A DNA stretch of 57,659 nt from a virus (lineage: Duplodnaviria > Caudoviricetes). This document shows, piece after piece, positions 1 to 54,379 of the stretch. How positions within the stretch are numbered: the first letter of the stretch is position 1; every line of letters starts with the position of its first letter. The notes beneath the pieces are model-generated. The model saw only the letters and a program-made list of their open reading frames with translations, did no database searches and was not told the DNA's origin. A program made the position numbers and the translations under genes. The DNA lies in the IMG/VR virus record IMGVR_UViG_3300043443_000537, positions 1 through 57,659 of that record. One strand, 5' to 3'.

Positions 1-111
1 GTGTTCCCCCTTACCCGCCCTACCCCCGTGGGAAGGACCCATAGCTAGGCAAAATTTGCCGGTCAAAAATGACCACCGCTGGTCAAAATTGACCACTAGG
101 CAAAATTTGCC
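1..111. repeat. Terminal direct repeat, left copy (circular assembly overlap)
   Basis: Bases 1-111 are identical to 57549-57659. Confidence 0.97.
48..111. repeat. Cluster of four short palindromes in A-B-B-A order
   Basis: GGCAAAATTTGCC at 48-60 and 99-111; GGTCAAAAATGACC at 61-74; GGTCAAAATTGACC at 81-94. Confidence 0.85.
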
Positions 112-134
112 TGTCATGCGCGGATGGTTGTCGT

Positions 135-557
135 TCATTTGCGGTCGGGACGTTGGTAGTCGGGCCGGGCACGCAAGCGACGTGTCGCCTGGCGTTGGCG
201 CTCTGCCCTTGCTGGGTCGAGGATGAGGAAGATCGCGCGCTCGCTGAGTTCATGCTCTTGCGCCAGCCATTCCACGGTCTTGCCTGCGCGGAAGGCAGCG
301 CGGATAGATCGGTCGCGCTCGGCCAAGATGACCGCATGGCATTTCGCGAGTGGAAGCAGCAGCCCGCCGAACTCCTTTGATAGACGGTCAGCATGTGCCC
401 GTCCGATGGCGCGCGTGATCCAGTGGTTGTCGCGGCAGCGATAGGGGACATACATGGCCCGGTATTTCGCGCGCTTGGCAAGGGCAAGGGTAGGCTCGCG
501 CCCGATGACGTCAGCTACGACCTGAGCGGTGGGTGGCAACGGTATGGATTCCTCCAT
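135..557 (-). CDS. Mor/C-family transcriptional activator (putative late activator)
   Basis: VADVIGREPTLAL...FGGLLLPL...RDRSIRAAFRAGKTVEWLAQEHELSERAIFLIL matches the Mor layout with C-terminal HTH; start moved to ATG 557, behind a promoter motif. Confidence 0.75.
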   Translation of the reverse strand: MEESIPLPPTAQVVADVIGREPTLALAKRAKYRAMYVPYRCRDNHWITRAIGRAHADRLSKEFGGLLLPLAKCHAVILAERDRSIRAAFRAGKTVEWLAQEHELSERAIFLILDPARAERQRQATRRLRARPDYQRPDRK

Positions 558-7288: not shown

Positions 7289-8887
7289 TCAGAGGGCGGC
7301 GGCCGGGATTGCGCCCCGCTCTTCTGCGGTGGGGGTGCGTCCGTGACGAGCCCGGAACACGTGAGCTGCCCACCCGTGCGGGTTCTTCATCCCGCGCTTC
7401 TTGCCAATGGCAATGAGTTCCGCGAACGTCTGCGCGCTACCCTGCTCGGCGCGCTTCGCTCGGCCCTCCGCGGCGGCGTGATCGCGACCGCACTTCGGGC
7501 AGATCTCGAGACGTTCACTGTGGACGTGGGTGCATTTCGGACACTGGCGAAACGCCGCGCCGGACGCCGAGACGCCGAGCTGCGGGACTACGAGCTCGAC
7601 GAGCTCGCCGGCAACCTGCTCAACCTCGCGACCGCCGCCCGTAGCGGTAGGCTTGCCGCAATGCGGACACTTGGACGCCGGGAGGAACGTGCCAAAGCAG
7701 GCCTTGCACTGCATGACGCGGTCGCCGGCCTCGCCGTCGCGCTTCTTCTTTTTCTTCGCGGTCTGGCCGTCAAGCGACCAATCGCGCTGCTCCTCGGCGA
7801 GTCCGTGGCGCAGGCAGTTGCCCACGTGGTCAAGGATGACCGCGCGCGGCTTGGGCCCGGCGGCTATGGCTGCAAGCCGCTCTTCATTGGTGGTCGTCGG
7901 CATTCCCTTCGCGTAAACGGGCCGGAGAACGCGGCCGACCTGTTGAAGATGGAGGCCGAGCGACTGCGTAGGGCGCAAGAGAATGCCGGTGGTGACAACG
8001 GGTATGTCGGTGCCCTCGCTTATGATTTCGCACGAAGTCAGGACGTGGAGGCGGCCGTCTCCGAGCGAGGCTATGAGATCGCGCCGCTCAAAATCGGAGA
8101 GCGTGCCGTCTATCGAGGCGGCACGGAAGCCGGCGGCACGGAAGGCCTCGGCGACGTGCTGAGCGTGAGCTACCGAAACACAGAACGCGATGGCCGGCGC
8201 GCCTGGGCAAATCCTGCCGTAATGTGCGACCGCATCGCCGACGATCCTGGGCTTGTCCAAGACGACCTCGGCGTCATGCCGATTGAAATCGCCGGCGGTA
8301 GTTCGGATCGAAGATGCATCAAATTGGGGCGGCGGGCAGAAATATGCCGGACGCGAAAGAAACCCGCGCGCCATCAAATCGGCGACCTCCGGCCCGCGTA
8401 TCAAACAATCAAACACTTCACCAAGACCGCGCCCGTCAACACGTTCAGGGGTGGCAGTCACGCCCAAATGTAGTGCGCGCGGAAATGCGTCGGTGATCTT
8501 CTTGTAAGTGCCCGCGACCGAGTGGTGACATTCATCTGTAATAATCAGGTCGGGCGGCACAACCGATTCAAGCCGCCGGCATAGTGTTTGCACGGAGGCG
8601 ACCTGCACCGCCTCAACCTGGTTCATCGACTCACCCGCTGCGATGAGCCCATGCCCAACACCAATCTCGGCGAGCGTGCGGGATGTTTGGTCAAGGAGTT
8701 CCGACCTGTGGACGAGGATCCACACGCGTCGACCCTTGGCCGCCGCTCCGTCGGTGATATATGAAAACAGAACCGTCTTACCTGCCCCCGTTGGGGCCAC
8801 AACAAGAGGCGCACGCTTGCCTGCGCGAAACACCGCGCGGACCTGCTCGACGAGCGTCTGCTGGTAGTCGCGAAGGCTTAACCGCAT
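7289..8887 (-). CDS. SF2 DExH-box helicase with C-terminal zinc fingers
   Basis: LRDYQ, PTGAGKT, DECHH, TATP, QQVGRVLR; four CxxC pairs; start ATG 8887. Confidence 0.95.
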   Translation of the reverse strand: MRLSLRDYQQTLVEQVRAVFRAGKRAPLVVAPTGAGKTVLFSYITDGAAAKGRRVWILVHRSELLDQTSRTLAEIGVGHGLIAAGESMNQVEAVQVASVQTLCRRLESVVPPDLIITDECHHSVAGTYKKITDAFPRALHLGVTATPERVDGRGLGEVFDCLIRGPEVADLMARGFLSRPAYFCPPPQFDASSIRTTAGDFNRHDAEVVLDKPRIVGDAVAHYGRICPGAPAIAFCVSVAHAQHVAEAFRAAGFRAASIDGTLSDFERRDLIASLGDGRLHVLTSCEIISEGTDIPVVTTGILLRPTQSLGLHLQQVGRVLRPVYAKGMPTTTNEERLAAIAAGPKPRAVILDHVGNCLRHGLAEEQRDWSLDGQTAKKKKKRDGEAGDRVMQCKACFGTFLPASKCPHCGKPTATGGGREVEQVAGELVELVVPQLGVSASGAAFRQCPKCTHVHSERLEICPKCGRDHAAAEGRAKRAEQGSAQTFAELIAIGKKRGMKNPHGWAAHVFRARHGRTPTAEERGAIPAAAL

Positions 8888-18011: not shown

Positions 18012-18259
18012 CGCCGCGCCGCCACCTCCCCCGCTTCGGTCACGCGCCTGCGCACGTGCAGGCCGTCGACCCGGAGCCCTACAACCCGAACGAGCGCGTC
18101 CGCCGTCGTGGCGCGCTCGCCTTCGGCTACGGCGACGCCATCCGGTTTCGCCGCACGCCTAGCATGCCGCGCCCGCGACAGACCGGGCCGGACTTTCCCC
18201 TCCTCGCTCTCGCATTTGTCCTTGCACTCCTCAGCGCGTTCTTACTCTCGCGCCTGTGA
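18008..18259 (+). CDS. Hypothetical protein with C-terminal transmembrane helix
   Basis: ATGA overlap; FPLLALAFVLALLSAFLLSRL. Confidence 0.6.
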   Translation: MTPRRHLPRFGHAPAHVQAVDPEPYNPNERVRRRGALAFGYGDAIRFRRTPSMPRPRQTGPDFPLLALAFVLALLSAFLLSRL

Positions 18260-18296
18260 ACCGCGCCGGGCGGACTCCCGGCAACCCTCCCTCGTT

Positions 18297-19310
18297 ATGA
18301 AACTAGCCTCAATCGAAGTCATCGCCGACGTGCGCCCGCATGGGAATGCCGACCGGCTCGAAATCGCCACCGTCCTCGGCTGGCAAACCGTCGTCCGCAA
18401 GGGCGAGTTCAAGACCGGCGACCGCTGCGTCTTCATCGTGATCGACACTATCCTGCCGCCGGCGCCGTGGTCCGCATTCCTCGCGCACCCCGCCGCGCCC
18501 GACCTGCCTATCCGGCTCAAGACCGCGAAGCTCCGCGGCGAGTTCTCGCAAGGCCTGGCGCTGCCGCTCACCGTCCTGCCGGAGCACATGCGCGACTGGC
18601 AGAACGGCGCCGATGTCGGCGGCGAGCTGGGCGTGAAGAAATACGAGAAGGAGATTCCCGCCGTCCTATCCGGCGAGGCGAAGAGCGCGTTCCCGACTCA
18701 CTTCGCGCCTCGCACCGACGAGGACAACGGCCTGAGTCATCCGAGCATCGTCGAGATGGTCCTGGCTGAGCGCGAGCTCGTCATCACCCTAAAACTCGAC
18801 GGCTCCTCCTGCACGGTCGTGTGGGAGAACGGCAAGGGCATCGTCGACGTCTGCTCGCGCAACCTGAGCCTGCGCGACGACGGGAAGAATGGATTCTGGC
18901 GCGCGGTCAAGAAGCTGAAGCTCGACCGGCTCAGCGGATACCTCGAGTGGGGGCCGCGCACGGTCCTGCAGGGCGAACTCATGGGGCCAGGCGTGCAGGG
19001 CAACCAACTCAAACTCACCGAGCCGACGCTGTTCCTGTTCCAAGTCCACAACGAGGCAACCGGCTGGCTGGCGCATTCCGGCGTCCGGCGCGTCGCGGAA
19101 CATATCGGCGCCGAGGTCGTGCCGCAGATTGAGGTGCCCATCGGCTGGACTAATCGCGACCTCGCTCAACTCCAATCCGTCGCCGACGCGCAGAAGCTCC
19201 CCGACGGCTCGCCCGCCGAGGGCATCGTGGTCCGGCCCGCTCGCGCCATCGCGTTCGGCAACGGCCGCCCCGCCGGCTTCAAGATCATCAATCGCAACTA
19301 CGGCGAATAA
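18297..19310 (+). CDS. ATP-dependent RNA ligase, Rnl2-like (DRB0094 type)
   Basis: N-terminal HGNADRLEIATVLGWQTVV; motif I KLDGSS, III QGELMGPGVQGN, IV EGIVV, V FKIIN; start ATG 18297. Confidence 0.92.
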   Translation: MKLASIEVIADVRPHGNADRLEIATVLGWQTVVRKGEFKTGDRCVFIVIDTILPPAPWSAFLAHPAAPDLPIRLKTAKLRGEFSQGLALPLTVLPEHMRDWQNGADVGGELGVKKYEKEIPAVLSGEAKSAFPTHFAPRTDEDNGLSHPSIVEMVLAERELVITLKLDGSSCTVVWENGKGIVDVCSRNLSLRDDGKNGFWRAVKKLKLDRLSGYLEWGPRTVLQGELMGPGVQGNQLKLTEPTLFLFQVHNEATGWLAHSGVRRVAEHIGAEVVPQIEVPIGWTNRDLAQLQSVADAQKLPDGSPAEGIVVRPARAIAFGNGRPAGFKIINRNYGE

Positions 19311-20561: not shown

Positions 20562-21316
20562 GCCGCGATTTTGGCGAACACCTGGCGGCCTGCGCTGGCG
20601 ACGGTGTGGATGTCAGCGTGCCGGTTCCGCACCGCGCGAAGGCCGAAGAGGCGGATGGTGCCAGCGACCTCGACGCCGCGCTTGAACACGCCGAGACACC
20701 TCGCGCGACCGCCGAGGAGGCCACGCTCGCCGCTGAGGTTTATCGGCTGCAAGGCGAGCTCGCGAAGGCCGAACGCCAGCGCGACAACGAGGCCGCCGCG
20801 TCATTTGCGGCCCTGCGCCTCGTCTCCGACATACGGTTTGCGCTAGGTGACAACGGAAAGCGGATGCAGGACGAGCTCGTGGCGTGGTGCAAGGAGATCG
20901 CCGGCGCACAGGCCCGCGTGGCCGACCTGGAACAGCAGGTTCAGTTGGACGACAAAGCAAAGCGTGTCATGGTTCAGTGGAGCAGCGCCGAGAAGCGGGA
21001 ACTCGAAGCCCGCAACGCGCGCCTCGTCGCTGAGCTTCAAAACATCGCCAACGCCAAGCCGCACGAGTGGGGCGAGGAGCGCGACCAGTTCCAAGCGTGG
21101 GCGCAGAACCGAGCCCGTCACACTCTCGCCGCCCTCGCGGACGACGGCGCGCCGCACCCGGACACGGCTCGGCTGGATTGGCTGGAATCTCAGGGTGATT
21201 CACTTAGCCAAGGATGGAAGCGGATGTTCTATGAATACGACTGCCGCACACTGGCAAACGGCGACATCCGCGCCGCCATCGACGCCGCCATGCAGGCAAA
21301 GGAGGGCGGAAGATGA
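20558..21316 (+). CDS. Hypothetical coiled-coil phage protein
   Basis: DTARLDWLE...IRAAIDAAM C-terminus, typical of phage accessory proteins. Confidence 0.75.
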   Translation: MSRDFGEHLAACAGDGVDVSVPVPHRAKAEEADGASDLDAALEHAETPRATAEEATLAAEVYRLQGELAKAERQRDNEAAASFAALRLVSDIRFALGDNGKRMQDELVAWCKEIAGAQARVADLEQQVQLDDKAKRVMVQWSSAEKRELEARNARLVAELQNIANAKPHEWGEERDQFQAWAQNRARHTLAALADDGAPHPDTARLDWLESQGDSLSQGWKRMFYEYDCRTLANGDIRAAIDAAMQAKEGGR

Positions 21317-21447
21317 AGCTCTTAATCAGCACCATTCTTTGCGTCGCCGTCGCGCTGTCGCTGTTTGGATGGTTGTTCCTCGTCATTCTGGACCGCGCCG
21401 TGGATCGCGAGATTGAGCGCCGCGCAGAGGAGGAGGGCGAGCCATGA
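21313..21447 (+). CDS. Small membrane protein (44 aa)
   Basis: MKLLISTILCVAVALSLFGWLFLVILD...; ATGA overlaps on both sides. Confidence 0.6.
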   Translation: MKLLISTILCVAVALSLFGWLFLVILDRAVDREIERRAEEEGEP

Positions 21448-21668
21448 GCGGCCCCAAGCAACCGCGCAACGACGGCAGCCGCCGCATCGCCAACATGCGG
21501 ACGCACTACGGTCGGAAGCAGACCGCCGGCGCGATTTTCTTCGACCGCAACGGCAACCCGATCCCGAACAGCGAGGTCATTCGCGAGGTCGACGAGGGCT
21601 GGCGTCACTTCTGGCGGAGCCGCGGCGGCGTGCCAGTTCTTCCCAAAATGGGGGGGCGCTTGCCGTGA
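21444..21668 (+). CDS. Hypothetical protein
   Basis: 74-aa ORF with coupled overlaps. Confidence 0.65.
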   Translation: MSGPKQPRNDGSRRIANMRTHYGRKQTAGAIFFDRNGNPIPNSEVIREVDEGWRHFWRSRGGVPVLPKMGGRLP

Positions 21669-21895
21669 GCCTACCCGGCTTCTTCACATCCAACTATTCC
21701 AAGGACCGCGCCAAGCGCGAGGCCGTTACCTGGCGCCGCACCGAAGGCGTTGCCTGCGCGAACTGCGGCGGGCCGATCATGGCCGGCATCCTTGACGGCG
21801 AGCTCGTCGCCAACGCCTGTCAGAACTGCCCGGCGACGTTCGCGCCAACCTGCCCGGCCGGCGAACTGGCGAAGGAGTGGAGGGCGAACGGATGA
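21665..21895 (+). CDS. Small zinc-ribbon protein
   Basis: CANC...CQNC; GTG start overlapping upstream stop. Confidence 0.6.
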   Translation: MSLPGFFTSNYSKDRAKREAVTWRRTEGVACANCGGPIMAGILDGELVANACQNCPATFAPTCPAGELAKEWRANG

Positions 21896-22170
21896 ACACA
21901 TGGCGCGTCCCTGACGAACTGCGCGCGAAGATCGCCGCCGTGCCGCCTAGCGTTGGCCGGCGCAAGGTCGCGGCTAAGTTCGGCGTGAGCGAGAACACCG
22001 TGACCAACATCCGGCGCGAGTTCGGCGTGAAGATGGCGCGACAAGGCGGGCCCCTGTTCTGGGGCGCGCTGCGGATAACCGCCCGAAACACCGCGAAGAG
22101 TTCATGGCCGATCCGGGGCATGAAGCCGAGGCCGTTGGCGTGGGCGATGGAGGGCGTGGTGGCGAGCTGA
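21892..22170 (+). CDS. HTH DNA-binding protein next to attP
   Basis: GRRKVAAKFGVSENTVTNIRREFG. Confidence 0.65.
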   Translation: MNTWRVPDELRAKIAAVPPSVGRRKVAAKFGVSENTVTNIRREFGVKMARQGGPLFWGALRITARNTAKSSWPIRGMKPRPLAWAMEGVVAS

Positions 22171-22209
22171 GCGAACCGCAGGCTCACCGGAGGCGCTGAC
22201 GCTCGCGTT

Positions 22210-22490
22210 CTGATTTGCTCCCGATTGCTCCCGCTGGCGGACATCCTGCGGACAATTCAAGGACGTGCGGACAATGCCGCGCGCCTAACCTGTTGAACCC
22301 TCAACCCTTAACTCGCCTTTGCACCCCTTGACGAATATACTAGCAGTGTCTATCGTTTACCCCTGCGCTCGGTTGCGGTCCGTTGCGCTCGTTGTCGAAT
22401 CAGCGACTTGCGAGCGACGGCCTTTGATACTGAGTGCCGCCGGATGCTCTGAGTTGCGTTCCGGTGCGGACAACCTGCGGACAACGGGGG
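22210..22490. mobile_element. Putative attP region
   Basis: TGCGGACAA repeats at 22247, 22266, 22465, 22476; IHF-like sites at 22286-22298 and 22398-22410; directly upstream of integrase. Confidence 0.7.
22328..22356 (+). promoter_or_regulatory. Sigma70-like promoter upstream of integrase
   Basis: TTGACG-N17-TATCGT. Confidence 0.55.
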
Positions 22491-22494
22491 AACG

Positions 22495-23694
22495 ATGAAC
22501 CTCACCAAACGCACCATCGAAGGCCTGACCTGCAAGCCGGGCCGGGTCACCGAAACCTTCTACGACGAGCGCGTCTCCGGCTTCGGCGTCCGCGTGATCG
22601 CCAAGTCGGGGCGCAAGACCTTCGTGCTCCGCTACCGCACCCGCGCGGGCAGCGAACGATACTACACGCTCGGCCCTTGCGACGTGCTCTCGCCCGACGC
22701 CGCGCGCGCGGAGGCCATGCGCCTGCTCGCCGAGGTCGCGCTTGGCAAAGACCCGGCGGCCGAACTCGAGACCCTGCGCGCCGAGCCGACGGTCGCGACC
22801 CTGGCGACGGAATGGCTGGCGTGGGTGAAGGCCCACAAGAAGCCGAACACCCTCAAGAACTACAAGGCCTGCTACAAGTGCCACGTCGCCCCGGCGTTCG
22901 GGACGTTGCGCGTCTCGGAGGTCACGGAAACCGCGGTCGCCCGCGTGCACGCCAAGATGCACGAGCACAAATATCAGGCCAACCGCGTCGTCGTCATCCT
23001 GACCGCGATGTGGCGGTGGGGGATGCGCTACGGCTACATGCCGAAGGGCCCGGTGCCGTTCCGCGAGATCGAGGCCTACCGTTTCAAGCCGCGCCGGCGG
23101 CGGATGTCGGTCGACGAGCTCGTCGCGACGTGGCGTTCGCTCGACACCTTCACGGGGACCGAACTGGTGAACTTCGCCCCGCTCGTGAAGTTGCTCCTGC
23201 TGACCGGCGCCCGCCTCTCGGAATGGCGCGACGCCCTGTGGTCGTGGGTTGACCTTGACGACGCCCTCCTCCGCCTGCCCGATTCCAAGACCGGCGCGAA
23301 GGACATCCAGCTCCCACCCGAGGCCGTCGAGATCCTGCGCGCGCTGCCGCGGACATCCGTCTACGTGCTGCCAGGCGTGAAGGGCGGCCCGATGCGCGGC
23401 GTCTGGCGGGCGTGGGTGGCGTTTCGCGAATCCATCGGGGCGCCGGACCTGCGCATGCACGACCTGCGCCGCACGGTCGGCAGCATGGCGCTTGAGGCCG
23501 GGCTGAACGTGCGCGAGGTCGCTGACCTGCTCGGCCATGCGAACACCCGCAGCACGGAGATTTACCTCTCCGCCGTGAAGGAGCGCGAGGCCGGCAACGC
23601 GCGGAAGGTCGCGGGCGTGATCGTGCAGCTCGCGACCGGCGGGGCGCCCGTGGTCGAGTCCATTACAAAGCGCCGCGCCGTTTTCAGAAAATAG
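22495..23694 (+). CDS. int: Tyrosine integrase with N-terminal arm-binding domain
   Basis: FYDERVSGFGVRV...GRKTFVLRYR; TGARLSE; DSKTG; HDLRRT; LLGH...TEIY. Confidence 0.96.
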   Translation: MNLTKRTIEGLTCKPGRVTETFYDERVSGFGVRVIAKSGRKTFVLRYRTRAGSERYYTLGPCDVLSPDAARAEAMRLLAEVALGKDPAAELETLRAEPTVATLATEWLAWVKAHKKPNTLKNYKACYKCHVAPAFGTLRVSEVTETAVARVHAKMHEHKYQANRVVVILTAMWRWGMRYGYMPKGPVPFREIEAYRFKPRRRRMSVDELVATWRSLDTFTGTELVNFAPLVKLLLLTGARLSEWRDALWSWVDLDDALLRLPDSKTGAKDIQLPPEAVEILRALPRTSVYVLPGVKGGPMRGVWRAWVAFRESIGAPDLRMHDLRRTVGSMALEAGLNVREVADLLGHANTRSTEIYLSAVKEREAGNARKVAGVIVQLATGGAPVVESITKRRAVFRK

Positions 23695-23697
23695 GGC

Positions 23698-23711
23698 TTG
23701 CGTCGGCGCAA
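23698..23711 (+). promoter_or_regulatory. TTGCG-N4-CGCAA operator/-35 element
   Basis: TTGCGTCGGCGCAA; TAGGTT at 23720-23725; 38 nt before ATG 23736. Confidence 0.8.
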
Positions 23712-23735
23712 GCGGGTCGTAGGTTCGTCGGCGTT

Positions 23736-24095
23736 ATGAGCACCCACGCCTCAATCATCTACAAGACCGCCGACGGCTACGCCGGCATTTACTGCCACTT
23801 CGACGGCTACCCGTCGCACACCGGCCGCGTCCTCAACCGCCACTATTCCCAGCCCGCGAAGGTCGCCGAGTTGATCGCTCTTGGCGACATCTCCGGCTTT
23901 GCCCGCGACGGTCTCCCGGACGCCTACCGTGATCGCGGCGAGGATTGCCCGGCCTCTACGGGCGCGACGCTCAAAGAGGTCGAGGCGGCCATCGGCGGCA
24001 GCTTCACCTACGTCTTCGACGGCGCGGCGTGGACCTGCAACGGCAAGCCGCTCGCCGAGGCCATTGACAAGGACGACGACGGAGGCGACGAGTAA
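23736..24095 (+). CDS. Conserved phage hypothetical protein
   Basis: IYCHFDGYPSHTGRVL...LIALGDIS. Confidence 0.8.
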   Translation: MSTHASIIYKTADGYAGIYCHFDGYPSHTGRVLNRHYSQPAKVAELIALGDISGFARDGLPDAYRDRGEDCPASTGATLKEVEAAIGGSFTYVFDGAAWTCNGKPLAEAIDKDDDGGDE

Positions 24096-24145
24096 GCCTT
24101 GACCCGGGCGCCGCACCGGGCAACGTGCGGCAGGTTCTTTCTCAC

Positions 24146-24221
24146 ATGGCGGAAGCTCAATTGGTCGAGCAGCGGTCTCCAAAATCGCCGGTCGCAGGTT
24201 CGATGCCTGCCCGCCATGCCA
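24146..24221 (+). tRNA. tRNA-Trp (CCA)
   Basis: 76-nt cloverleaf; acceptor ATGGCGG/CCGCCAT, anticodon loop CTCCAAA, T loop TTCGATG, encoded CCA. Confidence 0.92.
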
Positions 24222-24225
24222 CTTT

Positions 24226-24300
24226 TGCAGGATAGTTCAGTGGCAGAACGCCGGTCTCATAAACCGGAAGTCGTGGGTTCGATTCCCGCTCCTGCATCCA
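24226..24300 (+). tRNA. tRNA with CAT anticodon (Met or Ile2)
   Basis: 75-nt cloverleaf; acceptor TGCAGGA/TCCTGCA, loop CTCATAA, TTCGATT, encoded CCA. Confidence 0.92.
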
Positions 24301-24304
24301 CTTC

Positions 24305-24422
24305 CCTCGTCGCGAGGAAGATTGCGATCCGAAAGGCTGCGTATGCCAACCCGGTGACCTCGCGAGCCTAGTTGCATGGGCGGATTGCATCCATGCCGCC
24401 GGTCGTGAAACTACCGGCACCA
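24305..24422 (+). ncRNA. Unknown structured RNA A ending in hairpin+ACCA
   Basis: TCGCGAGG/CCTCGCGA, CC-GAAA-GG, GCATGG/CCATGC, GCCGGT/ACCGGC then ACCA. Confidence 0.55.
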
Positions 24423-24426
24423 ATTT

Positions 24427-24519
24427 CTCCAGCTCACCGCTGGATACGGGCGAGATGTGGCGCGGTCCGCATACCCTTACGAAAGAGACCGCCGTCCGCC
24501 TGCACGTCAGCAGGCACCA
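24427..24519 (+). ncRNA. Unknown structured RNA B ending in hairpin+ACCA
   Basis: TCCAGC/GCTGGA, GGGCG/CGTCC, GCGGTC/GACCGC, GCCTGC/GCAGGC then ACCA. Confidence 0.55.
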
Positions 24520-24539
24520 CTTTCGTTCTTTCTCACTTT

Positions 24540-24903
24540 GGGGCTACACCGGTTTCGACTCTCGTCGAGGCCCTTAGCTGCATGCAGGCGGTGCCGGCTC
24601 CGCCTTGAACCAACCGGCAAACCACAAACGCCAACTCGTTTGATATGGCTCCCTCGGTTGAGCAGGCTGACGCGATCCTCGCGGCCACCGGCTACGTCGA
24701 GACCGAGCTCGCCACGGCTTAATCGACCGTGCCGTCGCCCGCCTGACTCCGCTACGGCGACGCGACGACGACAGCGGAATCTCAATGGCGCCCGTGCCAG
24801 CTCGCGGGATGGTGGAGGGTGACTCCGGTCACCCCTAATTAAGCATGTCGACGCGACGGGCGCAGGCGAGAACACAGGGGTTCGACTCCCCTTAGCTCCA
24901 CCA
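24540..24903 (+). ncRNA. ssrA: tmRNA
   Basis: 5' GGGGCTA...GGTTTCGAC; 3' GGGGTTCGACTCCCC-TAGCTCC-ACCA; G3:U70 alanine identity pair; internal tag ORF 24630-24722. Confidence 0.93.
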
Positions 24904-24905
24904 TT

Positions 24906-25033
24906 TTCCCCGTGCCTGCGCAGGCCGAGGCGTCGGAGTCAGTGGCGCATCTGGTGCGTCGCGAGGCTGGCCCTTGGCGCGAGCGTGCGCTACTTCAGGC
25001 TCAGCCTCGTGCTGGGACGCTCGCGGCGGGGAA
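24906..25033 (+). ncRNA. Unknown structured RNA C with predicted loop-loop pseudoknot
   Basis: Closing stem 24906-12/25027-33; stems 24924-30/24972-78 and 24979-86/25017-24; 9-bp loop-loop pair 24961-69/25002-10. Confidence 0.6.
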
Positions 25034-25040
25034 TTCAATT

Positions 25041-25155
25041 TGAGCGGCGGCGTGGAAAGCGCAGGCATGCGCGATCCGCGGTGGCGTCCTGACGACCGGC
25101 ACGGGTTGATCGCCGACGGAAGCGTTCAGCCGGTTCAAATCCGCCCGCTCAATCA
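25041..25155 (+). ncRNA. Enlarged tRNA-like RNA D (115 nt)
   Basis: Acceptor TGAGCGG/CCGCTCA, D-loop-like GTGGAAA, T loop GGTTCAAATCC, ends ATCA; no canonical anticodon arm. Confidence 0.6.
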
Positions 25156-25424
25156 TTTCCCCGATACCACCCCCACGGCTACGGCCCAAGGGTGCGCCAT
25201 TCGAAAAGTCCGGCGAGGTGCGCGCGCACTAGACCGGCTCCGGACAGGGGTTTAACTCCGGCGCTTATCGCCTCGGCGTAACAATCGCAGGCGACGTGCT
25301 CAACGATAGAACGCTAGCGGCCTGGCCCACCGCGATAAACCAACGGGCCACATCTTCCGACCTGCACGGTCTTCATAACCGCCGATCCCGCCGGCGTTGC
25401 AGCGAGCGGGCGAATTTCCCCGTC

Positions 25425-25646
25425 ATGCACATCCTCCTCCAATCCTTCGCCGCCGGGCTCGCCTTCGCGCTCGGCGCTTTCGTCGGGATCGGCGTCGCCG
25501 GTCTACTCTTCCGCTCGCGTGACAACGGCGCGATGGACCGACTTCTCGACACCAACAAACGCATCGAGGACCGGCTCAATGCGCAGGTGTCATGCCTGAC
25601 TCGCATTGCGGCCGCCGCCGAGCGGTCGAAGGAGGCGAAGCCGTGA
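25425..25646 (+). CDS. Small membrane protein
   Basis: N-terminal TM FAAGLAFALGAFVGIGVAGLLF plus coiled coil. Confidence 0.7.
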   Translation: MHILLQSFAAGLAFALGAFVGIGVAGLLFRSRDNGAMDRLLDTNKRIEDRLNAQVSCLTRIAAAAERSKEAKP

Positions 25647-25696
25647 GCGACCACCTGCGGTTCCACCGCTAAACAATTTTCCGCCGCGTAAATCGC

Positions 25697-26266
25697 ATGT
25701 CCTCAACAACCATCAACCGTAATCAACTCAAATCGTTCAACGCGTTTGCTTCTGCTTCTGCTTCGAATGCTCTTTGTGCGGACTCCACGGTGCCTAAAAA
25801 AAATCGTTCTTTGAGGCGCGACACCGCGACGACGGGGGAATCGTCCTCACCCCTCGCGGCGGATTCAATCTCAACTCGGGTGCGCATGATCTGCGAGCGG
25901 GCCGAGCCTGCGTGCGGGACGATCATGGCTCACGTAAACGGATGGGTCTGGTGCATGGTCTGCCCCGAGACTCACAAAATCTCTCCAACCTACTCGCCGA
26001 TGCGCTATGCCTTGACAGAAAAGGCGCGGCGAGAGGCCAAGATAAAAGCAGGCTTTTGTGCCGAGTGTGGCCGCCGACGAGACACAATCTCCTCTCGCTT
26101 GTGCGCCAGGCATCTCGCCATGAAGCGTGTCCGTAAGCGCCGATATGACGAGCGTCGTAACTTGGCCGTCAAGGACTCACTTTATTCTGGTTCCAGCCGA
26201 GGTATGTCCGGCGGGGCCGTTATCACCTATGACCTCCGTGACGAGACTGCCGGCATCTTGCTCTGA
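25697..26266 (+). CDS. Hypothetical Cys-rich protein (start uncertain)
   Basis: CMVC, CAEC...LCARH; lower GC than neighbours. Confidence 0.45.
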   Translation: MSSTTINRNQLKSFNAFASASASNALCADSTVPKKNRSLRRDTATTGESSSPLAADSISTRVRMICERAEPACGTIMAHVNGWVWCMVCPETHKISPTYSPMRYALTEKARREAKIKAGFCAECGRRRDTISSRLCARHLAMKRVRKRRYDERRNLAVKDSLYSGSSRGMSGGAVITYDLRDETAGILL

Positions 26267-26522
26267 CTACAACCGCGTCCTCAACCACCTGATGCGCCTG
26301 CGCGGACTGTGGAATCGGACGCCGTCGGAGAACGTGCGCCGCCGAACTGAAGCCGCGATGTCGGTGTGGGGCCGTCGCGCTCGCGAGCTGCGCGAGATCG
26401 AAATGAACGGCTTCGCGGCCAAGATTCAGCGCAGCGAACCCCTAACCAACGACGAGCGTGCGCGCCGGCAAGGTTTGATCTTCGGCCACAACGGGCAGGC
26501 GCGCGGCTTTAAGGTTTTTTAG
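26229..26522 (+). CDS. Hypothetical protein
   Basis: MTSVTRLP...; last rightward gene before the convergence point. Confidence 0.55.
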   Translation: MTSVTRLPASCSDYNRVLNHLMRLRGLWNRTPSENVRRRTEAAMSVWGRRARELREIEMNGFAAKIQRSEPLTNDERARRQGLIFGHNGQARGFKVF

Positions 26523-26619
26523 TCCTGCCAGAGCGACCGCCACACCCCGCGCGCGGCGAAACACGCCCGGCGAAGATGCTCGCGCAGGCAGCGCAGGTGC
26601 AGGGTGATTGCGACGCGGT

Positions 26620-26796
26620 TCATTCGTCGTCGTCCTCGCCGCAGGTGTGCGCCTGCTCGTCGAGCGCGCGCAGGATCGTCCGCTCGTGCGCCTCAACTGT
26701 TTCAAGCGGCGTCTTGTCCGGCAGCTCGATCTCGGCGTCGTAGCGTGTCCAGCCGCCGTCGGTCCACCCGCGGATGACTGACAGCCGGACCTTCAC
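26620..26796 (-). CDS. Hypothetical protein (58 aa)
   Basis: GTG start overlapping upstream stop; VKVRLSVIRGW...GEDDDE. Confidence 0.55.
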   Translation of the reverse strand: MKVRLSVIRGWTDGGWTRYDAEIELPDKTPLETVEAHERTILRALDEQAHTCGEDDDE

Positions 26797-27092
26797 GGCG
26801 CAGGGTTGAGCGAGTCGATTACGTCCTGCGTGCAGGCCGCGTAGCCTGCCGCGTCCACCATGTTGTCCCGCTTCGGTCGATGCGCCTGGCGCGCGACCTT
26901 CACGAGAATCATGAGCGGGCCGATGTCCTCCGCGCGCACGGTCACGGTGCGGCCGTTGGTCCGGCTAAGGTAGGCGGAGAACATCGCGGCCTGCGTGGTG
27001 AAGTCGTCGACGGGCGGCCCGTAGGCGGCGTGCCGGTCGCCGTAGACGAGCGACTTAGCCTCGGTGAGGATGTCGGGAGGGGTGGCGCTCAT
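26793..27092 (-). CDS. DUF6378-like protein
   Basis: ILTEAKSLVYGDRHAAYGPP...KVAR...RDNMVDAAGY; start ATG 27092. Confidence 0.75.
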   Translation of the reverse strand: MSATPPDILTEAKSLVYGDRHAAYGPPVDDFTTQAAMFSAYLSRTNGRTVTVRAEDIGPLMILVKVARQAHRPKRDNMVDAAGYAACTQDVIDSLNPAP

Positions 27093-28108
27093 GAGTTCAG
27101 GAGTTTGCCGTTGTGGATGCGGAAGTTTGTGACGTTGAAGAGGCCGCCAGTGCTGACCTCGATCTCTGCGAAGCCGTGATTCCATCCGTTGTTCGGCTCG
27201 TAGAGGGGCCGCAGCTCGCACAGGCAGCCGGTCGACCAACAGGTCACGATGTCGCGGCCGAGGTTGGTCTCTGTGTGCTCGGAGGTTTTGTGTGAGTGGC
27301 TGACCATACACGAGACCTTCGCGCGCATGAAGGCGCCGCGGGCGGGGTTGACCGGCGCGGAGATGCCGCGGGGGAGCTCGTGGCCGTGTAGGACCGGGAG
27401 CTTCCCAACCATGACCTCGCGCTTCTCGTAGACGTGCTCGATCCCGAACTTCTTGAGATTGAACAGCGCGCCGAGTCCGTTGATCGTGACGTCGTAGAGT
27501 TCCGGCGCGCGCTCCATGATGTAGTGCTGCAGGCGCTCGTCGTGGTTGCCTTCCTTGAAGACGATGCGGGCGTCGGGGAATAGCTCGCGCAGCTTGCTCA
27601 GGAACGCGAGCGCGGTCTTGCGCTCCTGCTTGAACGACCGAGCCTCCGGGTTCTTGCAGAAGCGCGAGAGCGTGTGGAAGTCCGCGAGGTCGCCGTTGAT
27701 GAGGATGCCGTCGACCTTGCGGCGCTGGCCGGTCTGCAACGCCAGCGTCAGGGCGCCGATGTTGTGATACGGGAGGTGGATGTCGGGCAGCACGAGGACG
27801 CGCTCGCAGCCGTCCATGATGAACGGTGTGTGCTCGCGCTCAAACGAGGCCGGGAGATTGAGCGGGTTGATGGGATTGAACTTGGAGGCTGGCGTGGTTA
27901 TGGCGGCGAGTCCGCGATCCTCTCGCTTTGCCTTCCCATTTGCGCCGCGGCGATACCGGATGGCGCAGCGCGCCGCATCCACGTCCTTCCACACCCGAGG
28001 ATGCTTCTTTGCCATGAGCCGCGCGAGCGTGAGCGACGGCATATCGGGGTGCTTCTTGACGTATTCGTCGGCGAGCTCGCTCGCGTGCGGGTTCTTGTGG
28101 TTGGGCAT
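27089..28108 (-). CDS. Calcineurin-like metallophosphoesterase
   Basis: DIH, NGDLAD, GNHD, HGH and SHSH motifs. Confidence 0.9.
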   Translation of the reverse strand: MPNHKNPHASELADEYVKKHPDMPSLTLARLMAKKHPRVWKDVDAARCAIRYRRGANGKAKREDRGLAAITTPASKFNPINPLNLPASFEREHTPFIMDGCERVLVLPDIHLPYHNIGALTLALQTGQRRKVDGILINGDLADFHTLSRFCKNPEARSFKQERKTALAFLSKLRELFPDARIVFKEGNHDERLQHYIMERAPELYDVTINGLGALFNLKKFGIEHVYEKREVMVGKLPVLHGHELPRGISAPVNPARGAFMRAKVSCMVSHSHKTSEHTETNLGRDIVTCWSTGCLCELRPLYEPNNGWNHGFAEIEVSTGGLFNVTNFRIHNGKLLNS

Positions 28109-28111
28109 AAA

Positions 28112-29128
28112 TCATTCGGCGGCCTGCTCGGGCTGCGGCAGGTTCTCCTTCGCGGCGGTGCCGGTCGCGACGGTGTTGTAGCCCTGCCGGCTAAGGCGAT
28201 GCTCGACACGTGTGATCTTCCACTCGCCCTCGTCGAGCTCGCTGCGGAAGCCGCGTAGAATCGCGCGCCCCTCCGCCATGAGGTAGGGCTGGCCAGGCAT
28301 GGTCAGCGTGAACTCCGTGCCACTGCGGCGGAAGTTCCGGAGATAGGAAGACGCGGCGGCCTGCGCGGTCTGCGCGTTTGGGTAAACGGCCTGCGCGCGA
28401 TAGACGGGTTCGCCGACGCCGGCGCCAACCTCGACGGGCTGGCCGGTCGCGGGGTTGTGCCAGGTAGTGACGACGGATTGAAACCGGCTGCGGTTGGAGA
28501 TGCGGAACGCCCACGTCGAGCAGTCCGATTTCAGGATCGTGAAGTGCGGAATGTCGTTGCCCTTGGTGGTCTTTGCCTCCGCGCGCGAGAGGGCAATAAG
28601 GCGCCCGAAGGTCGGCTTGACCACGAGGTCGCGCTCGACGGCCAGGCGCGTGAGGAGATTGATGTCGGACTCGTTGGTTTGGTCGACGTGCGGGAGCTGC
28701 ACCGCCGCGGCGGTGGCGGACACCTCGGCGACGAGGCCTTGCTCCTCCGCGATGGTGCGGACCAAAACACCGAAGGTCGTCGGATCCCACGAGCGCGTCT
28801 TCTGCGATTGCAGCGCCTTGCCGGCGTCGGAGAGCAGGAAGGACGCGCCGGCGGCGCGGATCGTCAGCCGGTCGGGCGGGCCTTCGACTGAGGACTCGTC
28901 GACGACGAATAGGCCCATGTCGCGGAGCGCGCCCGCGTAGCCGAGCGCGACGTTCAGCCTGGCGCCCTTGCGGGGAATCTCAATCAGGCTGCCGGTGTCT
29001 TCGACGACGATGTTCAGGGTGTCGGCGCGCACGCCTGCCTCGTCGGTAACGGCGAGGTCGATGAGCCGGCCGTTGAAGTTGGCCGTAATGTCCTTGCCCT
29101 CCGAAACAATGCGATAGGCCGGGGTCAT
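28112..29128 (-). CDS. P2 gpD-like baseplate hub (late control D)
   Basis: DEAGVRADTL, GLFVVDE...GPPDRLTIRA, KTRSW, DQTNESD..LLTRLA. Confidence 0.92.
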   Translation of the reverse strand: MTPAYRIVSEGKDITANFNGRLIDLAVTDEAGVRADTLNIVVEDTGSLIEIPRKGARLNVALGYAGALRDMGLFVVDESSVEGPPDRLTIRAAGASFLLSDAGKALQSQKTRSWDPTTFGVLVRTIAEEQGLVAEVSATAAAVQLPHVDQTNESDINLLTRLAVERDLVVKPTFGRLIALSRAEAKTTKGNDIPHFTILKSDCSTWAFRISNRSRFQSVVTTWHNPATGQPVEVGAGVGEPVYRAQAVYPNAQTAQAAASSYLRNFRRSGTEFTLTMPGQPYLMAEGRAILRGFRSELDEGEWKITRVEHRLSRQGYNTVATGTAAKENLPQPEQAAE

Positions 29129-34253: not shown

Positions 34254-34301
34254 GGTGGTTCCGGTGGTTGTGGGTTGAGGTTATGCGGTGCGCGGCGGCG
34301 C

Positions 34302-34320
34302 GTCTTGTGCGGGGATTTCC
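34302..34320 (-). promoter_or_regulatory. Late promoter box upstream of sheath
   Basis: GGAAATCCCCGCACAAGAC-N18-TAACCT. Confidence 0.82.
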
Positions 34321-41738: not shown

Positions 41739-41771
41739 TGCCCGGCGAGTATGGGAAGCCCCGCCGGGGGT

Positions 41772-41790
41772 GTCTTGTGCGGGGATTTCC
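41772..41790 (-). promoter_or_regulatory. Late promoter box upstream of baseplate W
   Basis: GGAAATCCCCGCACAAGAC-N18-CATACT. Confidence 0.82.
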
Positions 41791-47707: not shown

Positions 47708-47741
47708 GTTTCTGACGAGGTTATGCAGTTCATGCGCGCGG

Positions 47742-47760
47742 GTCTTGTGCGGGGATTTCC
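47742..47760 (-). promoter_or_regulatory. Late promoter box upstream of capsid
   Basis: GGAAATCCCCGCACAAGAC-N18-TAACCT. Confidence 0.82.
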
Positions 47761-52367: not shown

Positions 52368-54379
52368 GCGCTGACGTAGCCGCCGCGCCTCCGAGGACGG
52401 GACGCAACGGGTCGGGGGCGAGTATGGGCAGGGGGTGCGGGTGCGTCTTGTGCGGGGATTTCCTCCGGCGGCGCACGTTCTGGCGCGACTGGTGGCGCGA
52501 TTGGCGCGACCGGCGGTTTATCTGGCGCGACTTCGGGCGCGTCGTCGCCCTGCTCCTCGGCCTCAACCTGGGCGACCGCCTCGCGCCGTTTTTTCATCCC
52601 GAGCGCGAGCTTCGAGAAGTCCGGCTTGGCCAGCACGAGCGCGGCGAACGCGTAGACGCGGCAGTCGAGCGCCTCGTTGCGCTTGCCCTCCGGCAGTTTC
52701 CACACGCGCTTCTTGTAGCCCTTCCGGTCCTTCTCGACGACGGCCTTCTCGGCGACGAGCTGCTCAAACCATTCAGGCGGGCGCCCGGTCGGAAAGTGGC
52801 AGTAGCCCGGAGCGCCTGGCGCGTCGATCCGCAGCCGCCGGTAAACGATGCTCTTTACCTGATCGACGGCGACGAGGAACAGGTCGACGGGCCGGCGTTG
52901 CTTGCCCACCCGCTTGCGCTGCGCGGCCGACACGAGTGCCTTGTCCTCGCCGGACACACCCTTGACGGCGAACACGCGCTCGCCACGGCGGCCGCGGCAG
53001 TAGTTGTAAACCGCCTCGGTGTTGTGGCCGCCGGAGTCGATGCAGCCGCCCCATATAGGCATCTTGCCCGCGGTCTCGTGCTGCCAGAGCTTGCGCCGCC
53101 AGGCGGTGAACGCGTCCCACGGTGAGCCGGGCCGGCCCTCCACAATGTCGGGGTCGCCCCAAAAAACAGCGTGGTCAATCGACCACGACTCCTCGCCTGC
53201 GCCGAAGCCGACGAGTTCGGCTTCGATACGGTCGGGTTGCGTGTCTGCGCCGAACACCATCGTCAGGACGCGGCCCGGCACCGGCGCGGCGTATTTCTCC
53301 GCGCGCTTAGCCAGCGCGTTCCCATCCATCGCGCCGTCCGCCTCGTCCCACTCCTCACCGAGCGAGGTGTTGATCCACACCTTGAGCCGCTCCGGGAAAT
53401 CTTTCGCGGCAAGGAAGTCCTTCACGACCTGCGCGATGGTTTTCCATGGCGAGTAGAGCTCGTTGATGTGGAAGCCCGCGGTGCCGGTGAATGGCGCGGT
53501 CGCTCGCCATCCGGCCCCCTGCTTCGGCGCCATCATGACCGCGACGTTCTTCTCGGCGTTCGTAAACGTGCGCGCGCAACTCGGGCACTTCATGCGCGCC
53601 GTGCCCTCCACATCGGCTTTGTCGAAGACGACGTTGCCCCACGCCAGCACGTGCGGGTGCTCGCAATGGGGGCAGCGAATTTCGTAAACGCGGCGGTCGC
53701 TCTCGTCGTAGGCGGCGCCGATGCGGCTCAGGCCCTTCGTCGTCGGGGTCGAGACGAGGATCTTCTTCGCGTTCCAGAACGTCGTTGTGCGCTTCTCGCC
53801 GAGCGCAACGGGGTCGCCTTCGTTGCCGGCGCTCGCCGGGTATCGGTCAACCTCGTCGAACAGGACGATGCGGATCGGGCGCCCGGCCAGGTCGCTCGGT
53901 GAGTTCGCGCCCGCGATGGTGAGGTGTCCGCCCGGAAAGGCCTTGCGCCGGATGCTGCTGCCAGTGTCGCGCGCCTTCGGGTCGCCGCACTTTTCGCGCA
54001 GCGTTGGCGTGTCGCGCAGCATCGGCGCGATGCGGTCTTTCGAGAACGATTCGCCGAGGTCCGTCGTCGGATAGACGACCATGATCGGCGACGGGTCGAA
54101 GTCGATGTAGTAGCCGACGGTGTTGAGGATGACCTCGGACTTGCCTACCTGCGCGGAGGACTTGACGACCACGCGCTCAATGGCGGGGTCGCACACCGCG
54201 TCCATGATGCCGCGCTGATACTCCGCCCGGGCGGTGTCCCATCGGCCAGGCTCAGCCGACGATTCGCTCGGCAGCATGCGGCGGTTATCCGCCCACTGCG
54301 AGACCGTCCACCGCGGCGGCGGCGCCCATCGGCGCGAGATGCGCCGGAACAACTCAACGACTGCGTCGACCGATTGCAT
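52361..54379 (-). CDS. Terminase large subunit, lambda gpA family
   Basis: SAQVGKSE, FDEVDRYP, STPT, CPHC, IDSGG, RNEALDC. Confidence 0.97.
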   Translation of the reverse strand: MQSVDAVVELFRRISRRWAPPPRWTVSQWADNRRMLPSESSAEPGRWDTARAEYQRGIMDAVCDPAIERVVVKSSAQVGKSEVILNTVGYYIDFDPSPIMVVYPTTDLGESFSKDRIAPMLRDTPTLREKCGDPKARDTGSSIRRKAFPGGHLTIAGANSPSDLAGRPIRIVLFDEVDRYPASAGNEGDPVALGEKRTTTFWNAKKILVSTPTTKGLSRIGAAYDESDRRVYEIRCPHCEHPHVLAWGNVVFDKADVEGTARMKCPSCARTFTNAEKNVAVMMAPKQGAGWRATAPFTGTAGFHINELYSPWKTIAQVVKDFLAAKDFPERLKVWINTSLGEEWDEADGAMDGNALAKRAEKYAAPVPGRVLTMVFGADTQPDRIEAELVGFGAGEESWSIDHAVFWGDPDIVEGRPGSPWDAFTAWRRKLWQHETAGKMPIWGGCIDSGGHNTEAVYNYCRGRRGERVFAVKGVSGEDKALVSAAQRKRVGKQRRPVDLFLVAVDQVKSIVYRRLRIDAPGAPGYCHFPTGRPPEWFEQLVAEKAVVEKDRKGYKKRVWKLPEGKRNEALDCRVYAFAALVLAKPDFSKLALGMKKRREAVAQVEAEEQGDDAPEVAPDKPPVAPIAPPVAPERAPPEEIPAQDAPAPPAHTRPRPVASRPRRRGGYVSAW
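52445..52463 (-). promoter_or_regulatory. Late promoter box within the 3' end of terminase, upstream of gpW/portal
   Basis: GGAAATCCCCGCACAAGAC-N18-CATACT. Confidence 0.8.

Follow-up and report, generated by a model that had tools for sequence, protein, structure and literature searches.

A one-piece tmRNA gene with a 30-residue tag beside the integrase of a temperate freshwater phage

The window analysed here, the whole 57,659-nt stretch of IMG/VR virus record IMGVR_UViG_3300043443_000537, carries a one-piece tmRNA gene whose encoded tag, ANSFDMAPSVEQADAILAATGYVETELATA, is 30 residues long and ends in LATA. We consider it probable that this gene yields a working phage tmRNA, which would use the SmpB of the host and is carried as accessory cargo next to the integrase. 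The gene itself, its tRNA-like domain, PK1, resume codon, stop codon and encoded CCA can all be read from the nucleotide sequence (Table 1). Phage tmRNAs are known already; what is new is an unusually tagged example, with a tag unlike any in the samples we examined. Its value lies in being a small, self-contained gene of 364 nt in a 57.5-kb temperate phage, in which the known functional elements are readable.

Table 1. Features of the phage and of its tmRNA gene. Gene position 1 corresponds to window position 24540; helices were located by hand and their pairing was verified by script.
Feature	Window positions	Gene positions	Strand	Details and evidence
Genes 5' of the RNA cluster				primase, C5 methylase, helicase, exonuclease, RNA ligase, tyrosine integrase
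attP-like region	22247-22484		+	exact TGCGGACAA at 22247, 22266, 22465, 22476
Tyrosine integrase with arm-binding N-terminal domain	22495-23694		+	PF13356, PF14659, PF00589; phrog_1
Small ORF, 119 aa	23736-24095		+	phrog_1987, unknown function; between integrase and tRNA-Trp
12-nt motif GTTCTTTCTCAC	24134-24145		+	abuts 5' side of tRNA-Trp
tRNA-Trp	24146-24221		+	anticodon CCA, CCA encoded; ARAGORN, Rfam
tRNA-Met	24226-24300		+	anticodon CAT, CCA encoded; ARAGORN, Rfam
One-piece tmRNA gene, 364 nt	24540-24903		+	CCA encoded; ARAGORN, Rfam RF00023
Acceptor stem	24540-24546/24893-24899	1-7/354-360	+	7/7 pairs, G3:U70
Helix 2a		21-27/326-332		7/7 pairs
PK1	24586-24618		+	pairing by script; Rfam alignment
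PK1 stem 1, 6 bp	24586-24591/24600-24605	47-52/61-66		all paired
PK1 stem 2, 5 bp	24593-24597/24614-24618	54-58/75-79		all paired
Tag reading frame, 30 codons	24630-24722	91-183	+	ARAGORN, Rfam, script
Resume codon GCC	24630-24632	91		11 nt after PK1; A at -4 = 24626
Stop UAA	24720-24722	181-183		in 9-nt loop of hairpin
Helix-5-like hairpin, 5 bp	24713-24731	174-178/188-192	+	holds UAA in loop
H-type pseudoknot 3' of tag	24733-24777		+	single sequence, no covariation possible
Post-tag pseudoknot stem 1, 7 bp	24733-24739/24756-24762	194-200/217-223		fully paired
Post-tag pseudoknot stem 2, 5 bp	24749-24753/24773-24777	210-214/234-238		fully paired
Two hairpins at usual PK3/PK4 place	24791-24796/24803-24808 and 24817-24823/24828-24834	252-257/264-269 and 278-284/289-295	+	fully paired
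T-arm, 5-bp stem	24876-24892; stem 24876-24880/24888-24892	337-341/349-353	+	5/5 pairs
Discriminator A and CCA (ACCA)	24900-24903		+
Genes 3' of the RNA cluster				P2-like tail and baseplate, capsid-protease fusion, lambda-type portal, gpA-type terminase

Anatomy of the tmRNA and its tag

A preliminary description, made from the letters and their open reading frames, had proposed a phage tmRNA at this place, and the two programs it named for checking, ARAGORN and Rfam, return the same gene with the same coordinates. The tag that ARAGORN reports, ANSFDMAPSVEQADAILAATGYVETELATA*, is identical to the translation given there. Rfam model RF00023 aligns to all 364 nt over its positions 1-374, with 68.9 bits (E 8.9e-25; gathering cut-off 47 bits), a score lying between those of two accepted phage tmRNAs, from mycobacteriophage Bxz1 (73.9 bits) and Bacillus phage G (67.6 bits), which we count in favor of a working molecule. 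With the same model, phiCbK gives no match above the cut-off (21.2 bits). The Rfam model of the permuted tmRNA reaches only 16 bits on the phage molecule, at its T-arm.

The tRNA-like domain had been described as complete, with a G3:U70 pair, and so it proves: all seven acceptor pairs form, G3 stands opposite U, and ACCA follows. The T-loop comprises 7 nt (UUCGACU), and the T-arm is aligned by Rfam at high posterior. The resume codon, previously deduced from the Ala-Asn start of the tag, falls on the resume codon of the model, again at high posterior, at the distance from PK1 and with the upstream A given in Table 1. In E. coli the corresponding base, A86, shows almost no variation and fixes the frame at a point four bases downstream, according to the available part of PMC2481249. 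Only frame 0 begins with an alanine codon at this site; in the -1 frame a stop follows after 4 codons, and the +1 frame remains open for 63 codons and reaches into the hairpins 3' of the tag. Frame 0 is thus the sensible tag frame, and the suggestion that the true resume codon might lie much further downstream finds no support. G or C occupies 20, 15 and 24 of the 30 first, second and third codon positions of the tag frame, respectively, which is the order found in the phage's own genes.

The post-tag region, traced by hand in one sequence, contains one clear pseudoknot and two hairpins where PK2 to PK4 are expected, and the Rfam alignment of this middle part has low posterior. The long tag occupies the room of one pseudoknot. 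In E. coli, activity is kept on replacement of the tag template and of all four pseudoknots, as stated in the part of PMC2481249 at hand, so that the smaller number of pseudoknots after the tag need not speak against function. The minimum-free-energy fold of the whole molecule (z -1.75) is uninformative, the method being blind to pseudoknots. Two further candidates near the gene were set aside. The T-arm is partly repeated at 25244-25259 (14 of 16 positions), but this match does not extend and we take it as chance; a suspected tRNA-like 3' piece near 25128-25155 has no Rfam match at E up to 10.

The tag contains five acidic residues and no basic one, and its penultimate residue is Thr. For a baseline, a generic tRNA-like-domain pattern was searched in IMG/VR, where it matches at least 113 stretches; the 80 loci listed yielded 75 tmRNAs with ARAGORN. 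Since many of these 75 are probably host ssrA genes at prophage edges, they show what is ordinary for tmRNAs in this size class. Tag length among the listed matches has a median of 10 residues and runs from 8 to 21; the ending is AA in 70 of 75 cases and TA in none. The contrast drawn in the preliminary description, of a long tag without the usual ending, therefore stands against this sample. It does not make the tag unprecedented among phages, since the tag of Bxz1, ATDTDATVTDAEIEAFFAEEAAALV, has 25 residues, seven of them acidic and none basic, and ends in ALV. Bacillus phage G, with AKLNITNNELQVA, ends in VA, and for Enterococcus phage vB_Edu_21C1 ARAGORN gives AKNEELLAVA. An AA ending is hence a typical feature of tmRNAs and not a defining one, as the LV of Bxz1 and the VA of phage G illustrate. 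At 30 residues the phage tag is the longest among the tmRNAs examined, and Bxz1 provides a phage precedent for a long, acidic, odd-ended tag. Length by itself says little about selection: given the base composition, the frame would stay open for 29 further codons with a probability of 0.49.

The phage, its RNA genes and its integrase

The virus is a temperate, myovirus-like, integrase-bearing phage of 57.5 kb from a freshwater metagenome. PHROGs and Pfam name phage genes across the whole record, which is complete, with 111-nt direct terminal repeats and a CheckV value of 100%; the tmRNA had rightly been called phage-encoded. The assembly around it is supported by a source-run contig of 56,340 nt that spans the tmRNA region with no differences and by six 151-nt pieces of the region from the run of a second study, likewise with no differences, one of which (24834-24984) bridges the 3' end of the tmRNA and the downstream phage DNA. 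SmpB (PF01668) was not found in a six-frame search of the window, in agreement with the earlier remark that smpB is absent; the same search was positive in 10 of 14 control genomes.

The accessory block runs in the order integrase, small ORF, tRNA-Trp, tRNA-Met and tmRNA, which places the three RNA genes 0.45-0.85 kb downstream of the integrase. The tRNA-Met appears, from its U1-A72 pair, not to be of the initiator type. An identical copy of the 12-nt motif that abuts tRNA-Trp lies at 24525-24536, 3 nt upstream of the tmRNA, and both copies come after a GC-rich hairpin. This common leader of tRNA-Trp and tmRNA suggests a shared expression or processing signal in the phage. The same block also holds, on the minus strand, a calcineurin-type metallophosphoesterase (phrog_221, 27089-28108), which has no sequence match to any solved structure, and a DUF6378 protein (26793-27311); tblastn finds no counterpart of either in the closest relative.

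This relative (G001), found by a capsid search, is a 62-kb IMG/VR record with a capsid 82% identical to that of the phage; the two genomes are syntenic, at 66-79% nucleotide identity. G001 lacks a tmRNA, tRNAs and a tyrosine integrase; window positions 23717-28113 have no counterpart in it, and the integrase lies within an insertion of about 2 kb relative to it. RF00023 exceeds its cut-off in none of the 36 capsid-related IMG/VR records searched (36 of 80 loci), with sub-threshold matches in two of them. On these grounds the RNA cluster appears to be accessory cargo of recent date, linked with the lysogeny module. Scans with single proteins, the integrase and the terminase, found no relatives of the phage, and a metagenome scan with the integrase alignment gave 42 loci, with no tRNA or tmRNA gene detected by ARAGORN in the best 6 of 42. 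For the integrase itself there are relatives with 84-89% identity (P0130, P0131).

One contig of the source run, at depth 3, connects position 24142 directly with 24899; the joint has 3 shared nt and a side of 30 letters. The joint leaves out tRNA-Trp, tRNA-Met and almost all of the tmRNA, and it may, as a weak indication, represent a minor deletion variant. A second joint, from 21288 to 25629, has sides of 20 and 23 letters and unlike flanks, and we take it as chance.

Just upstream of the integrase, the motif TGCGGACAA occurs as two pairs (22247/22266 and 22465/22476) that flank about 190 nt. The whole window contains five exact copies; with one mismatch allowed there are 17, against 15.2 expected, which is no enrichment. 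Paired TGCGGACAA motifs were found in at least 117 IMG/VR stretches. Among the 80 loci listed, an integrase 37-39% identical to that of the phage adjoins the pairs in four, and no related integrase was detectable near them in the other 76. In those four loci a tRNA lies between the pairs, on the strand opposite to the integrase: tRNA-Lys, as a 3' half or whole, in L292, L340 and L357, and the 3' half of an initiator-type tRNA-Met in L310, the halves running from the anticodon loop to CCA. This layout reads as the classic attP of a tRNA-targeting integrase. The corresponding inter-arm stretch of the phage (about 190 nt) contains no tRNA-like piece, its local alignments to the phage's three RNA genes and to the tRNAs of the four loci score at shuffle level, and the att region shares 7 8-mers with the RNA cluster against 8.8 expected. 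Because the inter-arm stretch is without similarity to the phage RNA genes, the tmRNA would not be the attachment site. L310, a 10-kb IMG/VR contig, also carries a complete initiator-type tRNA-Met gene at 136-213; its attP (7353-7593), 7 kb away from that gene, holds a different copy of the 3' half, identical at 38 of 47 positions.

The phage further encodes an RNA ligase (18108-19310, plus strand) with the Pfam PHA02142 OB-fold and RNA_ligase domains, which is homologous to the Naegleria gruberi RNA ligase (PDB 5cot, E 1.6e-36) and for which tblastn finds no counterpart in G001. With tRNA-Trp, tRNA-Met and the tmRNA it forms a modest group of genes around translation RNAs. As Trp and Met have one codon each, compensation of codon bias would not explain the two phage tRNAs. 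Elsewhere in the genome, a 47-nt repeat ending in GTCTTGTGCGGGGATTTCC is present in four copies (34274-34320, 41744-41790, 47714-47760 and 52417-52463), each placed, on the minus strand, just upstream of the point where a block of tail or head genes begins. From this position ahead of the tail and head blocks, the repeats are likely late promoter or activator sites.

Proposed mechanism and competing explanations

Based on the above data, we propose that the precursor would be trimmed to a 364-nt RNA, which the host alanyl-tRNA synthetase would charge with alanine through G3:U70 and A73 and which would bind host SmpB, the phage having no smpB of its own. The charged molecule would enter ribosomes stalled on broken or stop-less mRNAs. 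Translation would resume at GCC 24630, in the frame set by A 24626, and would end at UAA 24720, so that the ribosome would be freed and the nascent protein would gain an encoded tail of 30 residues together with the charging alanine. The likely benefit lies in ribosomes staying available, whether in infection or in lysogeny. The preliminary description had suggested that the molecule changes the fate of the tagged proteins or replaces a host tmRNA destroyed by defence; both roles are speculative. The acceptor stem, ACCA, the T-arm, helix 2a, PK1, the A at -4 and the stop hairpin are the elements with known importance, and their intact state supports a working tmRNA. Against it stand the singleton nature of the sequence, which permits neither a covariation nor a tag-conservation test, the lack of the RNA genes in G001 and of matches over the cut-off in the 36 capsid-related records, the low posterior of the middle part with its one clear post-tag pseudoknot, and the TA ending. 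The 24142/24899 joint, a weak indication, would fit dispensable cargo.

Several of these points are what one would expect of a neutral passenger, recently picked up from an unsampled bacterium or another phage and now drifting, an explanation that we hold to be unlikely but with a real chance of being right. The tmRNA is a singleton, sits in a variable accessory block missing from G001 and has a shortened post-tag region, and a minor variant without the RNA cluster may exist; given the even chance of an open frame calculated above, a lost stop codon would look the same as a selected long tag. A route for such a pick-up is offered by Buchholz et al., who propose, in the part of PMC9004378 at hand, that imprecise excision brings pieces of ssrA into phages. 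However, no essential tmRNA element is damaged, the stop lies within a hairpin loop as in canonical tmRNAs, and the leader motif common to tRNA-Trp suggests adaptation to the phage. Moreover, the att-like site lies upstream and the RNA genes lie downstream of the integrase, which would be unlike simple imprecise excision, and no bacterial source emerged, an exact-match search with a 38-base tRNA-like-domain pattern finding nothing among 185,579 bacterial and archaeal species, each represented by one genome. Still less can be said for a decoy that mainly sequesters host SmpB, or acts as a competitor of the host tmRNA, and so dampens trans-translation. The idea draws on Hudson et al. (PMC4131195, available text), in which a molecule consisting of the tRNA-like domain only strongly inhibits tmRNA, perhaps by titrating SmpB, and in which phage DS6A is described as carrying little beyond this domain; the atypical tag would also suit it. 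Yet a pure decoy could do without PK1, without the A that fixes the frame and without a complete reading frame whose stop sits in a hairpin loop, all of which the phage gene retains, and we regard this role as very improbable. That the gene is a host ssrA at a prophage border, or a product of chimeric assembly, is contradicted by the data and scarcely tenable. The ssrA gene is a common attachment site (PMC10865867, available text), CP4-57 beside E. coli ssrA being an example, and many of the 80 listed IMG/VR tmRNA matches lie within about 100 nt of a locus end. Here, by contrast, the record is complete and bounded by its terminal repeats, replication genes lie on one side of the tmRNA and tail and head genes on the other, and the long contig and the six pieces of the second study agree without differences. 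Given the complete record, the flanking phage genes and the absence of smpB, the tmRNA is phage cargo and not a host ssrA at a prophage border.

The neighborhood of the integrase raises a different explanation, distinctly unlikely in our judgment, in which integration into a host ssrA or tRNA gene leaves that gene disrupted and a phage RNA gene takes over from the lost copy. Such tRNA-dependent lysogeny has been described for actinobacteriophages by Guerrero-Bustamante and Hatfull (2024; PMC10865867), and its published hallmarks, in the available text, are a tyrosine integrase, an attP without a tRNA 3' half and a cognate phage RNA gene. The phage resembles those systems in its tyrosine integrase with an arm-binding domain, in the paired arm-type repeats (here the four exact TGCGGACAA copies), in an att region that lacks the tRNA half and in RNA genes close by. 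The four related loci among the 80 listed, which carry a tRNA half or a whole tRNA between the arms where the phage has none, add to the likeness, as does the absence of both the integrase and the three RNA genes from G001. In the actinobacteriophages the cognate RNA replaces the disrupted host gene, whereas the phage RNA genes are candidate complements; no host or attB was found, and the target could be something other than a tRNA or tmRNA gene. A single complement would also not call for three RNA genes, the att region and the RNA cluster share no more 8-mers than expected, the exact TGCGGACAA cluster alone stands out once a mismatch is allowed, and the paired motif occurs without a detectable related integrase in 76 of the 80 listed loci. 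A tmRNA acting as the complement is not reported in the available text of PMC10865867. With ssrA as the target, the phage tag would end up on all tagged proteins of the lysogen.

The working tmRNA using host SmpB thus remains our preferred reading. As a long shot, we add that it might form part of tmRNA-dependent lysogeny or, alternatively, that phages, in this case and in Bxz1, have repeatedly evolved long acidic tags without AA endings which spare the tagged proteins from host SsrA-tag proteolysis. If the latter were true, such tags would free ribosomes while steering the tagged proteins away from that proteolysis. Two questions are served by the gene: whether a phage tag changes the fate of rescued proteins, and whether, outside the actinobacteriophages, RNA genes beside an integrase can make up for a disrupted attachment site. 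In the accessible parts of the literature on phage tmRNAs, no study tests what a phage tmRNA does.

Origin and relation to known tmRNAs

Searches for the source of the gene used several parts of it. The exact 27-nt 3' end matches 4 IMG/VR stretches with 6 matches, all of them tRNA-Ala and none a tmRNA; a pattern of the D-loop and PK1 matches no IMG/VR stretch, and a degenerate pattern of the tag start matches 10 stretches, none of them tmRNAs. The 38-base pattern of the tRNA-like domain also has no match in metagenome contigs. These pattern searches demand exact words, which a diverged tmRNA source could escape. With blastn, matches of the tmRNA in INPHARED (50,697 phage records) are limited to the 3' end or to chance stretches, and matches in PLSDB plasmids cover the tRNA part only. 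The best global identity to the 75 tmRNAs among the IMG/VR matches listed is 59%.

As to the host, the capsid is about 51% identical to proteins of Roseomonas marmotae and Microvirga alba, the integrase 33-37% identical to Hyphomicrobiales and Altererythrobacter proteins and the terminase 48% identical to that of Roseobacter phages; these few and distant named protein relatives hint at an alphaproteobacterial host. Most Alphaproteobacteria have a two-piece tmRNA (PMC9004378, in the part available), and if the host were indeed one of these the phage tmRNA would not be a copy of the host's. The phage would then supply a one-piece tmRNA to a cell with its own two-piece tmRNA.

The closest parallel in design is the tmRNA of mycobacteriophage Bxz1 (cluster C), which is likewise a one-piece molecule without an smpB context, sits among phage tRNA genes and obtains a similar RF00023 score. 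The tags are alike in being long and acidic, in lacking basic residues and in ending other than in AA (ALV and ATA, respectively). However, the Bxz1 genome measures 156 kb, and in the stretch examined about ten tRNAs surround its tmRNA gene, as against two tRNAs and an integrase in the 57.5-kb phage, and the gene is 435 nt long as against 364 nt, with nucleotide similarity confined to the 3' tRNA-like end.

With bacterial one-piece tmRNAs (RF00023; E. coli SsrA) the phage molecule shares the tRNA-like domain with G3:U70 and ACCA, helix 2, PK1, the A at -4, an alanine resume codon and a stop in a hairpin loop (helix 5). It differs in the replacement of PK2-PK4 by one clear pseudoknot and two hairpins, in the lack of an adjacent smpB, and in its tag, which is three times as long as that of E. 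coli SsrA (ANDENYALAA; PMC2481249, in its available part) and ends in TA instead of AA.

In the available text of PMC9004378, tmRNAs are counted in 402 of 18,146 phage genomes (~2%). Among those discussed there, the two-piece tmRNA of the OM43 phage Melnitz and of pelagimyophages resembles ours in being a complete tmRNA carried as cargo with an uncertain role. The Melnitz gene is circularly permuted, tied to a glutamine riboswitch and carried by a phage that has no integrase, whereas the present one is one-piece and lies beside an integrase. Proximity of an integrase to a tmRNA gene also recalls CP4-57 at E. coli ssrA; there, however, the tmRNA is the host's and the island starts at its 3' end, while here the entire gene is internal to a complete phage genome, with some 2 kb between it and the att-like site. 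Lastly, the tmRNA of Bacillus phage G adjoins a suppressor-like tRNA with anticodon TTA, detected by ARAGORN at positions 1373-1446 of locus L161.
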